Shown: positions 4,095 through 14,315, counted from the first letter of the stretch. The stretch is 20,396 bases of DNA from a virus (IMGVR_UViG_3300020578_005505), one strand, 5' to 3'. Notes: generated by a model not told the origin, from the sequence alone. Translations and numbers: made by a program.

Positions 4095-4286
4095 TTAAAT
4101 AAATTGTTTTGAGCAAATTTTCCAAATTTTCCGTACAGGAAGGCCTAAAATATCACCCCACATTCCTTTTACGAATTCATAACTTTCCTCTTTCCTTATT
4201 TCAAATATTAATTCCTCCTCAACTGAGTATTTTTCTTCATCTGAAATAGTGTAAGCTTCTTCATTTATTAAAACACTTTTAATCAT
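4095..4286 (-). CDS. hypothetical protein
   Basis: 63 aa; ATGA overlap with the stop of the upstream gene. Confidence 0.55.
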   Translation of the reverse strand: MIKSVLINEEAYTISDEEKYSVEEELIFEIRKEESYEFVKGMWGDILGLPVRKIWKICSKQFI

Positions 4287-4864
4287 TTTTTTGTTTTTTT
4301 AACACAATTAGGATATGTTTTTCCAAAAATTTTTTTAAATCCTTTTTGGGTATATCCTTTCCAACATCTTTCTTTTAACAAATCTTCATTTTGTTGTATT
4401 TCAGAAGTTTCTTTATTTAAACGTTTAGTCTTTTCTTTTGATGCTTCTCTACGTTTTTCAATATAATCTAAAGCACGTTTTAGTCTAGCTTTGATCATAG
4501 TATCTTTAGCATTACCGTAAGCAGCTCTAACTCTTTGATGAATAAGATTAATAATTTGTGATTTTCTTTTATGTGATTTGGATTTGAAAGCCTCTTTATT
4601 AAGAGTGTCCACGATATCTTCTTTAGTTCTAAATTTTACAGATACAGTGTCGTTTTGATTTTCATCAGTATACAATCTTCGACTTGAACCTTCAGGTTTT
4701 TTACCTGTTCCTTTTTTAGGATCATTACCTTCTAAATATCCTTTTTTTAAAGCTAATTCTTGGTCATTAGTCCAAGTATCGGATGTTTTATATCTAACCT
4801 TTGATACCATATTTGATTTATATGGCGGATACATTTCTTTTAATAAATCTATTAATTTTATCAT
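4283..4864 (-). CDS. modular basic phage protein, putative protease-processed internal head protein
   Basis: N-terminus MIKLIDLLKE; central DPKKGTGKKP.GS.RRLYTDEN..DTV.VKF module; C-terminal CWKGY...KTYPNCVK module. Both modules are recalled from T4-like and large phages. Confidence 0.7.
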   Translation of the reverse strand: MIKLIDLLKEMYPPYKSNMVSKVRYKTSDTWTNDQELALKKGYLEGNDPKKGTGKKPEGSSRRLYTDENQNDTVSVKFRTKEDIVDTLNKEAFKSKSHKRKSQIINLIHQRVRAAYGNAKDTMIKARLKRALDYIEKRREASKEKTKRLNKETSEIQQNEDLLKERCWKGYTQKGFKKIFGKTYPNCVKKTKK

Positions 4865-4913
4865 AATATAGTATCTTACTATCTCTAGGTAAATAGCATA
4901 GCAAAGGGTTGTT

Positions 4914-5624
4914 TTATTTATCGATAAAATATATTAGTACTCCAGTTAGAAGTAGAGCTCCTATCTTCTGAAATTTATTCTGAAGTTTTAATTTCTTATT
5001 TTGCCGTTGCAGAGATTTATACTGCCTCGACAAATCATCTATAGCAAGGTCTTTATTTGAAATGATCGTTGTCAAATTTGATTCTTTAGTTTTAAAAAGA
5101 CTGATAGTGTTATCCTTTAAATTAATTCTACTCCCTTGTAATTCTATAATGCTATCTTTAATTACTATTTCTTTCACTGCTCCGTCATACTTTAATAAAT
5201 CTTCAGCAGCTCCTATTAGAACAGGTTTATTAAGAGGTATAAAAGTGTCAACTAGATTAGCCTCAGCCGGATATCTTTCATTGAAAAACTTTACTATTCC
5301 TAAGCTATCAGCTGCTTTTACTACTTCAACTTCTTTAATTACTACGTCGTGAATCACTTTTATCTTTCTCTTTTCATCTTCCAACAAGTCAGCGAGTTTT
5401 ATATCCTCCGCTTTTAGCTTGGTAATTAATGAATCAGCTTTTTTATTTTGTAAAACAAGCAAATTGTTTGCTCGGTTCAGGCTATCTAATTTTTCTACAA
5501 ACCCTGCTGAAGAATTATTACATTTACTGAGGAGTATCCAGAGCAAAATAACTATACCTCCAATAATACCTATCCGAATAGCTAAACTCGGATACCAGTA
5601 TTTTTTTATCAGTGTATTTCTCAT
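4914..5624 (-). CDS. membrane-anchored coiled-coil protein (spanin-like architecture, unproven)
   Basis: N-terminal TM (IGIIGGIVILLWILL), long heptad-rich region, second hydrophobic segment at the C-terminus (IGALLLTGVLIYFI). Confidence 0.65.
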   Translation of the reverse strand: MRNTLIKKYWYPSLAIRIGIIGGIVILLWILLSKCNNSSAGFVEKLDSLNRANNLLVLQNKKADSLITKLKAEDIKLADLLEDEKRKIKVIHDVVIKEVEVVKAADSLGIVKFFNERYPAEANLVDTFIPLNKPVLIGAAEDLLKYDGAVKEIVIKDSIIELQGSRINLKDNTISLFKTKESNLTTIISNKDLAIDDLSRQYKSLQRQNKKLKLQNKFQKIGALLLTGVLIYFIDK

Positions 5625-5697
5625 TGACTCTTTATTATAGTTTAAAACTTTCTAATAGATGCTTGTTTTGACTTTACTTTACCTGCATTTAATAATT

Positions 5698-5720
5698 AAA
5701 TTTTTGCGATTTTTTTCATT
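5698..5720 (+). repeat. 23-bp inverted repeat, left arm
   Basis: AAATTTTTGCGATTTTTTTCATT is the exact reverse complement of 6221-6243. Confidence 0.9.
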
Positions 5721-5745
5721 TTTTTATTAGTTAAAACATTTTTTG

Positions 5746-12038: not shown

Positions 12039-12383
12039 TTACTTTGTTTTTTCTCTCTTATTCACCGTTTTGAAAGGCTTCTTTATTTGATCTATAAGAG
12101 TTTTAATAGGAATGCATTCCTCAAATCTTTCATCTTCTAGCATAAAATTTATGCATTGCTCAAGAGCTGGAATCCAATACTGCTTTGGAATATCAATATA
12201 CATTCCAGTTCCATTAACTTCAAATAAAGTAGCAAAAGTTTTTTTATTCCTAAATGCTTCTTCAATAGCAAGGAATGTTTCTTTTTTGACTAGATTAATA
12301 AGAGCTTCGTTAGTTATTAAATCTGAAGCTTTGATGTCTTCGAGAGGCTCAAATAACGCTCTCGGTATTTTTCTCGTTTCCAA
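12039..12383 (-). CDS. hypothetical protein with a C-terminal UVR (UvrB/UvrC)-like motif
   Basis: LEQCINFMLEDERFEECIPIKTLIDQIK resembles the UVR coiled-coil E.(Y/F)E.A..I...I; TTG start. Confidence 0.55.
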   Translation of the reverse strand: METRKIPRALFEPLEDIKASDLITNEALINLVKKETFLAIEEAFRNKKTFATLFEVNGTGMYIDIPKQYWIPALEQCINFMLEDERFEECIPIKTLIDQIKKPFKTVNKREKTK

Positions 12384-12425
12384 AACCGTTTATTTAATTT
12401 ATTTTTAATAATACTTCAGCTTAAA

Positions 12426-12890
12426 TTATATTCTCTTTAATCCAGCCATTCTCCTCATCCATTCCCGGAGAGGCTCTTCTTCAGCAGGAGGCTGCTCTGT
12501 ATCCGGTATATTCTGTTCTGGTTCTTCTCCAGGAGGCTGCTCTGTTGCCCCTTTTGCTCCTCCTTTAAATACCTTATCTATAATATTATTAGCTAAAGAA
12601 GGAAGAGGAAGCAAAAACCCTATAACATTTTTATAAGGATTTTCAACATCGTATATAATTTGCATACCAGCAGCTCCGAATTTTTCTTGAAGCTCAGTCC
12701 CTATTTCATTAGCCATTTGCTGAAGCTGACGAGGGTCTTGAGGTACATTCTTCAATACAAATTGAAGCTTAACTCCTTTCTTTGTTTTATTTATATTAAC
12801 ATCGAACCGAAGAGTCAGATGGTGTCCTGCAATCTCTACAGGATACTCTGGAATCATAGCCGGTAAGGCTTCTTTTAATGTTGCTTTCAT
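12426..12890 (-). CDS. conserved phage protein, possibly virion-associated
   Basis: Starts MKATLKE; core LRFDVN.N.TKKG.KLQF; P/E/Q-rich linker; ends PLREWMRRMAGL; TATTTAT motif 4 nt upstream of the ATG. Confidence 0.7.
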   Translation of the reverse strand: MKATLKEALPAMIPEYPVEIAGHHLTLRFDVNINKTKKGVKLQFVLKNVPQDPRQLQQMANEIGTELQEKFGAAGMQIIYDVENPYKNVIGFLLPLPSLANNIIDKVFKGGAKGATEQPPGEEPEQNIPDTEQPPAEEEPLREWMRRMAGLKRI

Positions 12891-12903
12891 AATAATAAAT
12901 ATC

Positions 12904-13542
12904 TTATTCCCAGGCTAGTACTTTAAAACGTTCAGCAGGAAGTTGAAAATAATCAGTCTTCCACTTTGATTGCTGAAAAAATTCAAGATCAATCCACTCA
13001 CTCTTTCTTTTTATCATATCTTTTGCAGCTAAAGTCCAGTCAATAGATATTATTTTATTCTCAACTTCTACTTTCATTTTTTCAATCTCCTCTAACTCGT
13101 AGCTATCATATTCAAAATGAAGAAGTTCTAGAGAATTTCCTAAACTATCTACATAATCGATACTCAAATCTATTCCCCATTTTCCCTTGTAGTTTATCAG
13201 CTTATTTATGAGGTTATTTGCTTTAGCTAACATTTTAAGTTGCTCTAGAGCCTCTCCACTATATCCTTTTCTTTCAAACAAAAATGCATGATTTATATGT
13301 ACGTTACTAGTAGATTCGTTATCGGTCATCCAAACCTTCCTTATTGATTTTTCATCTCTATGGAAGACAAAACGTTGATTATTCTCTTTTGAATATTCTT
13401 GCTCTAATGGAGTTAACCGGTATCCATTCTGATCAAATAGCTCTACCCAGTAACCGCAAGTAAAAGCTTCTTTTCTAGAAAAAGGAATTGGATTATCCCA
13501 AGTTTTATTACTATAGAATTTTTGATCCGTTACAGTAATCAT
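12904..13542 (-). CDS. conserved phage protein of unknown function, possibly enzymatic
   Basis: LFDQNGY.LT.LEQ, HINHA.LFERKGY.G.ALEQL and KWG.D.S.DY motifs; ATGA overlap with the upstream flavoprotein gene. Confidence 0.75.
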   Translation of the reverse strand: MITVTDQKFYSNKTWDNPIPFSRKEAFTCGYWVELFDQNGYRLTPLEQEYSKENNQRFVFHRDEKSIRKVWMTDNESTSNVHINHAFLFERKGYSGEALEQLKMLAKANNLINKLINYKGKWGIDLSIDYVDSLGNSLELLHFEYDSYELEEIEKMKVEVENKIISIDWTLAAKDMIKRKSEWIDLEFFQQSKWKTDYFQLPAERFKVLAWE

Positions 13543-14303
13543 AGTAGCGTTCTGATATCAATAATATTATCGAGAGCATGTGCTGCTTCTTTGTAGCTCT
13601 CCTTCGATTCATCGTTTACGTCTGTAGTGAATTGCCAGTTAAAATAGAGTCTATCTATTGGTTTGAAGCCATAAAATGTATGTACTTGCTTTTGAGTCTT
13701 TACAACTTCAGCACCATTCCAGTTCTGCCCTATAAAAATAAAGCCAGACTCAATATCCTTGATGATATTCGATTCTCCAAGAGTTGTCCATCTATTCTCT
13801 AGCCAATCTAATCTTTCAATTAAACGTTGGTAAACAGCGTTAGCTTGACCCCATCTAATAGATCCTAGAAATATTATAACATTAGCTTCAAGAAGAGGAG
13901 TAACTAGCTTCCAGAGTTCATCATCTTGATTATTATAGGAAGCCCAGCATCTTAAATGACCTGAAGGATTTTTATCTTTATCTTGTAACTTAGATCCTCT
14001 CACTCCGCAATTATTTCCGTCCTTACTAGACACATTTCCTTCGCACTCATATATTTTCAGTTTAGAGGCATCTACTATCGTACATTTATGCGCTCCTAAT
14101 GATCTTTGAATTACTTGAGCAATTCGGGTCGATTTCGGAAGATCTCCCTCAGTAAGCTCATGCTTAATCCATCTGTTTGAGGTAGTTATGAGTAGAATTC
14201 TATCCTTTGTTTCTAGATACTTAACAGCTTTTTCCAACTGTTTTTTGAACTTAGTATCCGGTACTATTTTTGCCTCCTCCAGGAGTATTGATAAACTTCG
14301 CAT
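13539..14303 (-). CDS. NAD(P)H-dependent FMN reductase / multimeric flavodoxin (WrbA/Isf-like)
   Basis: ILLITTSNR phosphate loop; CEGNVS..GNNCG...RCWAS Cys cluster; DDELW...LLEANVIIF.GSIRWG..N..YQRLIERL; GFIFIGQNW. Confidence 0.8.
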   Translation of the reverse strand: MRSLSILLEEAKIVPDTKFKKQLEKAVKYLETKDRILLITTSNRWIKHELTEGDLPKSTRIAQVIQRSLGAHKCTIVDASKLKIYECEGNVSSKDGNNCGVRGSKLQDKDKNPSGHLRCWASYNNQDDELWKLVTPLLEANVIIFLGSIRWGQANAVYQRLIERLDWLENRWTTLGESNIIKDIESGFIFIGQNWNGAEVVKTQKQVHTFYGFKPIDRLYFNWQFTTDVNDESKESYKEAAHALDNIIDIRTLL

Positions 14304-14315
14304 ACAAATAAATAG

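Follow-up and report, generated by a model that had tools for sequence, protein, structure and literature searches.

The stretch IMGVR_UViG_3300020578_005505 (20,396 nucleotides (nt), hereafter the window) is part of the genome, about 175 kb in size, of an uncultured myovirus. All its real genes lie on the minus strand, with a G+C content of 27-37%. Four of them, p193, p445, p154 and p254 (Table 1), encode proteins whose extreme N-terminus is a short leader ending in L-x-E: 10 residues in p193 and p254, 7 in p154 and 27 in p445. An earlier note had proposed that these leaders resemble the propeptides by which phage T4 sends proteins into its head, and that they are preceded by a TATTTAT-type motif. 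The sequences and coordinates of the four N-termini and of the upstream motifs proved to be correct. Judged by sequence, such leaders exist, are enriched in the clade to which the phage belongs, are conserved in the register of the T4 capsid targeting sequence (CTS) and of the gp24 propeptide, are swapped between unrelated proteins, and co-occur in the relatives with a protease of the Peptidase_S77 family. The tagged proteins are probably, although by no means certainly, targeted to the prohead and cleaved there after the Glu of the leader.

Table 1. Features of the window, with positions counted from its first letter
Feature	Position	Strand	Description
NifU/IscU-type iron-sulfur cluster scaffold protein	530-943	-	Pfam NifU_N, E 1.3e-53
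p193	4283-4864	-	Basic, isoelectric point (pI) 9.95; leader MIKLIDLLKE (codons 4835-4864), followed by a widespread phage domain
CTATTTAC	4889-4896	-	Imperfect motif copy, 24 nt upstream of the p193 start; weakest of the four
Protein with a clear signal peptide	5746-6237	-	N-terminal signal peptide MKNLFLLFLVISYSLSSFAQ (from an internal ATG); beta-rich body
125-residue protein with HExxH motif	6703-7080	-	IIHEFAHYH; directly downstream of p445
p445	7145-8482	-	Acidic mosaic protein, pI 5.2; 27-residue leader MSYISHEDYKNLISCFQADTSKGILKE (codons 8402-8482), ending SKGILKE
CTATTTAT(AATAAA)	8499-8506	-	16 nt before the p445 start; kept upstream of 7/7 orthologs
HNH endonuclease	10985-11653	-	PHROG matches, E 3.5e-08
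p154	12426-12890	-	Leader MKATLKE (12870-12890); folded core, residues 15-108; disordered acidic linker; C-terminal tail
p154 C-terminal tail LREWMRRMAGLKRI	12429-12470	-	Resembles the tail of the clade scaffold protein
ATATTTAT motif	12895-12902	-	Ends 4 nt before the p154 start; [AC]TATTTAT at the same spacing in 8/9 orthologs
p254	13539-14303	-	Flavodoxin-like (flavin mononucleotide (FMN)-reductase-type), four conserved Cys; leader MRSLSILLEE (codons 14274-14303)
CTATTTAT motif	14308-14315	-	Ends 4 nt before the p254 start; conserved in 9/9 orthologs
Sugar-modification cluster	14316-20394	-	Immediately upstream of p254

Neither megablast with 11 kb nor a tblastn search with p254 gave a match in a phage collection. 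In IMG/VR, orthologs of p254 occur in the same gene order on 11 contigs. The largest of these, G001, measures 115 kb and is estimated to be 66% complete, hence the implied genome size of about 175 kb; it encodes GroEL, a family-A DNA polymerase, ribonucleotide reductase, a UvsX-like recombinase and many glycosyltransferases. The lineage is placed beside Flavobacterium phage vB_FspM_immuto (genus Immutovirus, host Flavobacterium sp. LMO8; hereafter immuto) because the tail sheath is 53% and PolA 58% identical; immuto is the closest cultured relative. The counterpart of the window in immuto is the region from the glycosyltransferase cluster to the baseplate genes. A complete relative in IMG/VR, G008, is 162 kb long and has terminal repeats.

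In its loose form, the L/I-x-E criterion of the earlier note did not hold: [LI]-x-E within the first 10 residues is found in 7 of the 43 window genes, against 4.4 ± 1.9 for internal windows, i.e., at chance level. Three of these seven genes had been missed. The loose pattern is equally at chance in immuto and G008. In the CTS of the T4 internal protein IPIII, residues 4 and 7 govern targeting, while residues 8 and 10 govern processing (PMC9026906). These determinant positions are occupied accordingly in p193 and p254, where residues 4, 7 and 8 are hydrophobic and residue 10 is Glu, so that the proposed likeness to the T4 CTS stands for these two proteins, but not for p154 and p445, which lie outside the 10-residue register. 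Written as a fixed register, M-x-x-phi4-x-x-phi7-phi8-x-E10 (phi, hydrophobic), the pattern is observed twice in the window (p193 and p254; 0.09 expected, reached in 9 of 2000 shuffles), six times in G008 (0.63 expected, 0 of 2000 shuffles) and four times in immuto (0.74 expected, 16 of 2000 shuffles). Cellulophaga phage phi17:2, a Bacteroidota phage with a non-T4 head and 33% G+C, has none (0.5 expected).

A register-free form, phi-x-x-phi-phi-x-E within the first 14 residues, occurs 18 times in immuto (4.3 in internal windows and 5.1 in shuffles) and 14 times in G008 (3.3 and 4.4, respectively), numbers that were reached in 0 of 1000 shuffles in both cases. The partial genome G001, of the same lineage as the window and without the head-proximal region, has three (3.0 expected), and phi17:2 has one (3.0 expected). 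The enrichment in immuto and G008, but not in G001 and phi17:2, indicates that the pattern is not a general property of AT-rich N-termini. Moreover, the codons at the conserved leader residues vary synonymously (TTA, CTA, CTT, CTG and CTC for Leu; GAA and GAG for Glu), which points to selection on the peptide and not on the mRNA. Selection at the mRNA level at leaderless starts was considered as the cause of the leaders and is ruled out by this variation.

Across the clade, 55 tagged proteins were found, in 35 families, including an FMN-reductase-like protein and an NT5C 5'-nucleotidase; in immuto, leaders occur on gp080, gp083, gp087 (NT5C), gp094, gp095, gp168, gp230 and gp231. In the clade, at least four leader classes can be distinguished, 7 to 27 residues long, with 14-18 leaders per genome (G008 and immuto). 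The portable tag that had been postulated is, therefore, not one tag, as at least three leader types occur among the four window proteins alone; its portability, on the contrary, is borne out by the unrelated mature parts to which the leaders are joined. Derivation of the tagged proteins from one diverged paralog family was rejected where the folds are recognizable and different (FMN-reductase-like, NT5C). Pfam and PHROGs searches of the four window proteins gave no function, p193 matching only PHROGs of unknown function.

In G005 (46953-48763; L033:6953-8763, plus strand), three tandem paralogs of ~200 residues are situated just upstream of the baseplate module. They start with MIKIRSLLKE, MISIRSLLKE and MVKRLQYLAGLIKE and resemble an internal-protein-like array with two leader classes.

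The leader of p254 is strongly conserved. Among 120 close homologs, 119 have L or I at position 4, 119 have L at positions 7 and 8, and 115 have E at position 10; positions 5, 6 and 9 vary freely. In the AlphaFold2 (AF2) model, residues 1-15 form a detached helix of low confidence, and the core begins at residue 17. No Pfam match was obtained for p254, and a profile search against PDB sequences was empty; a fold search was needed. Foldseek matched the model to FMN-binding reductases (2oys, 3fvw, ArsH, AzoR and WrbA; E ~2e-5 to 5e-4, template modeling (TM) scores of ~0.4-0.6), and the Atlas neighbors of p254 carry PF03358. The mature protein is, thus, predicted to have a flavodoxin-like three-layer fold resembling FMN-dependent reductases, and the suggestion that the tagged set includes an enzyme is upheld as far as a predicted fold can identify one. 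The p254 family has thousands of metagenomic homologs. In G008, the homolog has the leader MIKLTDLINE, and its gene lies 5 kb upstream of TerL amid other tagged genes, among them an NT5C-type 5'-nucleotidase starting with MGNLTDLLLE.

The leader of p193 is followed by a domain (DPKxGTGKKPxGSxRRLYTDE...) that has over 3000 homologs in metagenomes. Of the 120 best matches, 67 have a fixed-register leader, at differing distances from the core, 7 a version shorter by one residue and 11 a different long leader (MNLQE...), while an [LIMV]-x-E junction directly precedes the core in 96. The same core is, hence, combined with at least three leader types across homologs. The converse is also seen: immuto gp231 starts with MIKLIDLLTE, against MIKLIDLLKE in p193, and the downstream sequences are unrelated. 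Such swapping of leaders is the behavior expected of a portable tag.

Homologs of both proteins were also met on L009. At 4124-7711 (plus strand), a p254 homolog (MKLLNLLLE) is accompanied by two paralogs of 343-365 residues (MKL[IV]KILEQVLNE) and a 149-residue protein (MKLVKIFKE). A p193 homolog with the leader MQLLEILQDLIIE is located at 11101-11943 (minus strand). All members of the L009 cluster bear leaders.

Relatives of p445 were not found by a pattern search of viral contigs, but a protein search did find them. In the leader-bearing homologs, [LI]-x-E is at the same position in 115/115, and the residue following the Glu is A, G or S in 91 of the 115. Shuffling of modules, of which there are at least three types, starts exactly after the L-x-E. 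A string 'RAGL' near the C-terminus of p445 was considered as a tail motif and dropped, as it is not conserved among homologs. A helical module at residues ~325-360 (..LRK[AS]GLT.GEI.MFL.HE.EE..) is conserved in many homologs that otherwise differ in their modules. Adjoining the p445 orthologs is a family of ~200 residues (G001 8203-8793; G003 66500-67093) that starts with MNKNVQEFVNFVKSE (compare ..YQEFIAE in T4) and ends with ..KIFEEAGI; the window has no copy of it.

In p154, the [LI] at position 5 and the Glu at position 7 are invariant in 9/9 orthologs, and the leader is similar to the N-terminus of a clade head-module protein (MRTLQE...). The C-terminus of p154, ..REWMRRMAGLKRI, reads ..MRRMAGLKRI, and a tail ..[MRI]AG[LI]K is present in all p154 orthologs of the window lineage. 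The gene between the protease and the major capsid protein (MCP), the position of gp22, ends with R[WM]QKLAGIIK in immuto, in G008, in G021 (a 44.6-kb fragment of a more distant relative) and in 23 of 24 related loci. The same scaffold-tail motif, followed by a cut-site-like TE/S (a slash marks the cut), forms the N-terminus of immuto gp083 and gp230 (..RRMQKLAGIITE/S), and a related form starts one G005 protein. Among ~1200 open reading frames, AG[LI] within the last eight residues is restricted to three families: the scaffold, p154 and the family adjoining p445. In the AF2 model of p154, residues 1-10 are detached and of low confidence, the core is well predicted, and the acidic disordered linker is followed by a short helix at the C-terminus, within which the AG[LI] motif lies. 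A fold search with the core gave no match below E 0.1 and no recognizable enzyme family. The scaffold-like tail is a better candidate for targeting p154 than its N-terminal L-x-E, and some cargo may be addressed by imitating the scaffold's own docking tail.

Gene content indicates a T4-type head for the clade: its genes include those for a gp20-like portal, a gp21-family S77 protease, an acidic scaffold and a Gp23-family capsid protein. The annotation of immuto lists the gp20-like portal, a 'prohead core protein serine protease' and the Gp23 major capsid protein; in G008, Peptidase_S77 (E 8.5e-35) and Gp23 (E 1.6e-80) were confirmed. Both families were found in all tested relatives whose genomes are complete or nearly so (immuto, G008, G010 and G011), and the protease also on G021. 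Among the best 80 of 529 matching IMG/VR contigs, the clade protease is 76-97% identical. The gp21-like protease needed for the processing that the earlier note envisaged is, thus, encoded by these relatives, but it was not found on the incomplete fragments of the window lineage. A walk beyond the end of G001 met only the more distant G021, whose gene order is tail, fiber, MCP, scaffold, protease; synteny with G021 and immuto places the head module just past the end of G001. From this synteny and from the relatives, the phage of the window probably possesses a gp21-type protease of its own. Sites of the leader type are also present in the head proteins: the clade protease has GLLTE/S near its own N-terminus, the MCP has IVSE/A at most three residues from the position aligned to the T4 cleavage site, a head-module protein starts with MRTLQE/K, and a small protein inside the G008 head module bears the leader MKRSKLLEIIRE.

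The upstream motif CTATTTAT(A) is plausibly a late promoter element. In a position weight matrix (PWM) search, the p445 site scored 15.3 bits and was the only one in the window at or above 12 bits; the sites of p254 and p154 match the core motif only and not the strict PWM. CTATTTAT is biased to the coding strand, 20:5 in immuto and 21:3 in G008, and in these phages copies precede, by no more than 45 nt, the p154 ortholog, the genes for the portal and the tape measure, a head gene and other tail genes. Of 18 structural gene starts in immuto, 9 have TATTTAT at most 40 nt upstream, compared with 1 of 12 replication or metabolic (early) starts. At a fixed spacing, [AC]TATTTAT is kept upstream of 9/9 p254, 8/9 p154 and 7/7 p445 orthologs. 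The description of the four as putatively late proteins with this motif agrees with its conservation at p254, p154 and p445, but less well with the p193 copy and with raw counts in the window, which are at chance (CTATTTAY, 6 vs. 5.3 expected; TATTTAT, 19 vs. 16.9).

The promoter-like core TATTTATA of immuto and G008 (L038-L041 and L123-L131), when reverse-complemented, is identical to TATAAATA, the consensus of T4 late promoters. Counted on the coding strand of these two genomes, the ratio of TATTTATA to TATAAATA is 30:15 and 29:11, respectively.

The capsid-targeting tag of T4 is the textbook route by which proteins, such as anti-restriction factors and an RNA-polymerase modifier, enter the host with the DNA, and T4 applies it to a handful of proteins. 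According to the T4 genome record, IPIII and IPII start with MKTYQEFIAE/A, Alt with MELITE/L, gp24 with MAKINELLRE/S and gp21 with MNEPQLLIE/T, whereas gp23 is cut at ..FLTE/AEIGG; gp24 loses its first 10 residues, gp23 65 and gp21 9 (PMC9958956). The window leaders MIKLIDLLKE/M and MRSLSILLEE/A share with the IPIII and IPII tags the length of 10 residues, the hydrophobic positions 4, 7 and 8 and the Glu at 10, and, in both systems, the tag is found on polymorphic, otherwise unrelated, partly basic proteins and a gp21-family protease is encoded (here, in the relatives). The T-even internal proteins are polymorphic, with the CTS as their only common part (PMC3012670), and p193 recalls them. On the other hand, Leu or Ile is found here where T4 has Tyr or Phe, and the clade has at least four putative leader classes on many more proteins, enzyme folds included. 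The gp24 propeptide has I4, L7, L8 and E10, as in the window leaders, and a small or variable residue after the cut; gp24 itself, however, is an MCP-related shell protein, whereas the window proteins are unrelated to capsid proteins. A packaged ADP-ribosyltransferase that is delivered to the host, T4 Alt has a very short N-terminal propeptide (PMC9026906). Its leader, MELITE/L, is comparable to MKATLKE/A of p154 and MRTLQE/K of the head-module protein, but p154 has no recognizable enzyme family and has an additional, scaffold-like C-terminal tail. In phiKZ, 201phi2-1 and SPN3US, propeptides of head and ejection proteins are cut by gp21-like proteases (PMC9026906, PMC5694885). There, too, cargo sets are large, and a distant homolog of gp21 cuts many proteins of the head interior after Glu; in contrast to the T4-like L/I-x-E leaders of the clade, the sites are S/A/G-x-E, the propeptides are longer, and no short N-terminal tag is shared.

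The C-terminal tails of scaffolding proteins bind coat protein, for example in phage P22. The clade scaffold has a short conserved tail, copied by the C-terminus of p154 and by one N-terminal leader class, which suggests that cargo docks where the scaffold docks. The partner of this tail may be the shell, the portal or the core.

Taken together, the following course of events can be proposed. The four proteins would be made from late-type promoters (CTATTTATA-like). During prohead assembly, their N-terminal leaders would dock them to the scaffolding core or to the interior of the shell; in p154, the C-terminal tail resembling the ..KLAGIIK tail of the scaffold would also dock. The prohead protease would then cut after the leader Glu (LLKE/M in p193, LLEE/A in p254, TLKE/A in p154 and ILKE/A in p445), freeing the mature proteins inside the head, where they would remain associated with the DNA and, probably, pass into the host together with it. 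The cargo would consist of p193 (basic and probably DNA-associated), p254 (a flavodoxin-like enzyme), p445 (acidic and mosaic) and the small p154. Docking, cleavage, retention in the virion and ejection are all steps that we infer. Delivery into the host is less certain than prohead targeting and cleavage, and ejection is the least certain of all.

Several observations weigh against this course of events. Short amphipathic N-terminal helices can have other uses. In the window itself, only two leaders are in the fixed register, as neither the L-x-E of p154 (residue 7) nor the p445 leader (residue 27) fits it. The residue after the Glu of p193 is Met, and three homologs were called from that Met, so that some p193 copies may lack a leader. 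In the window lineage, p254 adjoins the sugar-modification cluster rather than head genes. Searches for Peptidase_S77 and Gp23 on 10 fragments of the window's own lineage did not find the head module; these fragments are at most 66% complete and none extends to it, and the negatives are read as incomplete contigs and not as absence because the positive control passes. The specificity of the clade S77 protease may also differ, since its phiKZ-type relatives prefer S/A/G-x-E (PMC9026906). In the literature, no paper describing such leaders in these phages was found, nor were proteomic, cleavage or packaging data for immuto or the window phage.

The main rival explanation is that the leaders are real portable modules with some other partner: they could dock proteins to another complex (for example, the phage GroEL/GroES, which the immuto-related clade encodes) or act in membrane association, oligomerization or stability. 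Enrichment and portability do not reveal the partner of a tag, and several tagged genes, p193 and p254 in the window among them, lie outside the structural modules. We nevertheless regard such a role as unlikely, because the register matches T4 propeptides known to be cut, the leaders end in Glu, one protein inside the head module bears a leader, one leader class copies the C-terminal tail of the scaffold, and the enrichment was seen in immuto and G008, both T4-headed, but not in the only Bacteroidota phage with a non-T4 head that was tested.

Somewhat less probable still is that the tagged proteins are accessories of the prohead core or of assembly, cut and then largely expelled or degraded like gp22, gp67 and gp68 of T4. 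The T4 core proteins do have similar sites and leave the head (PMC9026906), and the acidic, mosaic p445 as well as p154 with its tail are scaffold-like. However, the fold of p254 and the NT5C nucleotidase of the relatives look like effectors and not like scaffolds, p193 is strongly basic, as are DNA-associated internal proteins, and the high polymorphism of p445 and p193 resembles that of the internal proteins of T-even phages (PMC3012670). Chance or composition, by which AT-rich codons and ordinary N-terminal helices would yield L/I-x-E and TATTTAT-like strings, agrees with the chance-level loose and raw counts given above, but it is already largely refuted, and very improbable, in view of the 3-4x enrichment of the strict motif in the complete relatives (0/1000 shuffles) and its absence from two negative controls, the synonymous codon variation, the positions fixed in 120 homologs of p254 and in 115/115 of p445, and the conservation and strand bias of the upstream motif.

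Some other features of the window deserve mention. Directly upstream of the NifU/IscU-type gene is a TATTTAT-rich stretch (947-958). The signal peptide and beta-rich body of the 5746-6237 product agree with secretion, or with a place in the outer membrane, in a host of the Bacteroidota type. The HExxH protein has weak, sub-threshold matches to zincin-like metallopeptidase families (DUF6782 and MPTase-PolyVal), and the position of the HNH endonuclease is conserved in immuto (gp164) and in all related contigs. The sugar-modification cluster comprises two GT2 glycosyltransferases, a GDP-mannose 4,6-dehydratase (E 2.5e-111), an FkbM methyltransferase, two methyltransferase-like genes and a short DegT/EryC1-type aminotransferase piece of 198 aa (amino acids), which may be truncated or split. 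Outside the window, G001 contains an island of ~35 kb between the tail sheath and the fiber genes (~81-113 kb; L016-L017). It is metabolic-looking, with a Nol-type carbamoyltransferase, a radical-SAM protein, a cysteine-dioxygenase-like fusion and many enzymes of 250-470 residues; immuto does not have it at that place.

Returning to the leaders, it can tentatively be suggested, at a lower level of confidence than prohead targeting itself, that immutovirus-like phages load their cargo by means of several tags. Four or more interchangeable leader classes would address at least 12 unrelated proteins per genome, enzymes included, to a T4-type head, and at least one class, together with the C-terminus of p154, would mimic the scaffold tail, followed in the leader by the protease site. 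If the leaders act as the T4 tag does, an abundant environmental clade applies the T4 principle to cargo that is far more numerous and diverse, enzymes included. More than 500 IMG/VR contigs have the protease gene of the clade, and metagenomic homologs of p193 and of p254 each number in the thousands. Such a multi-tag system would also provide a sequence-level rule for addressing cargo to the interior of the capsid, for which the link between one leader class and the scaffold tail suggests a testable docking mechanism. The tags could then help to recognize packaged (ejected) proteins in metagenomic phage genomes and could serve as packaging handles for engineering.

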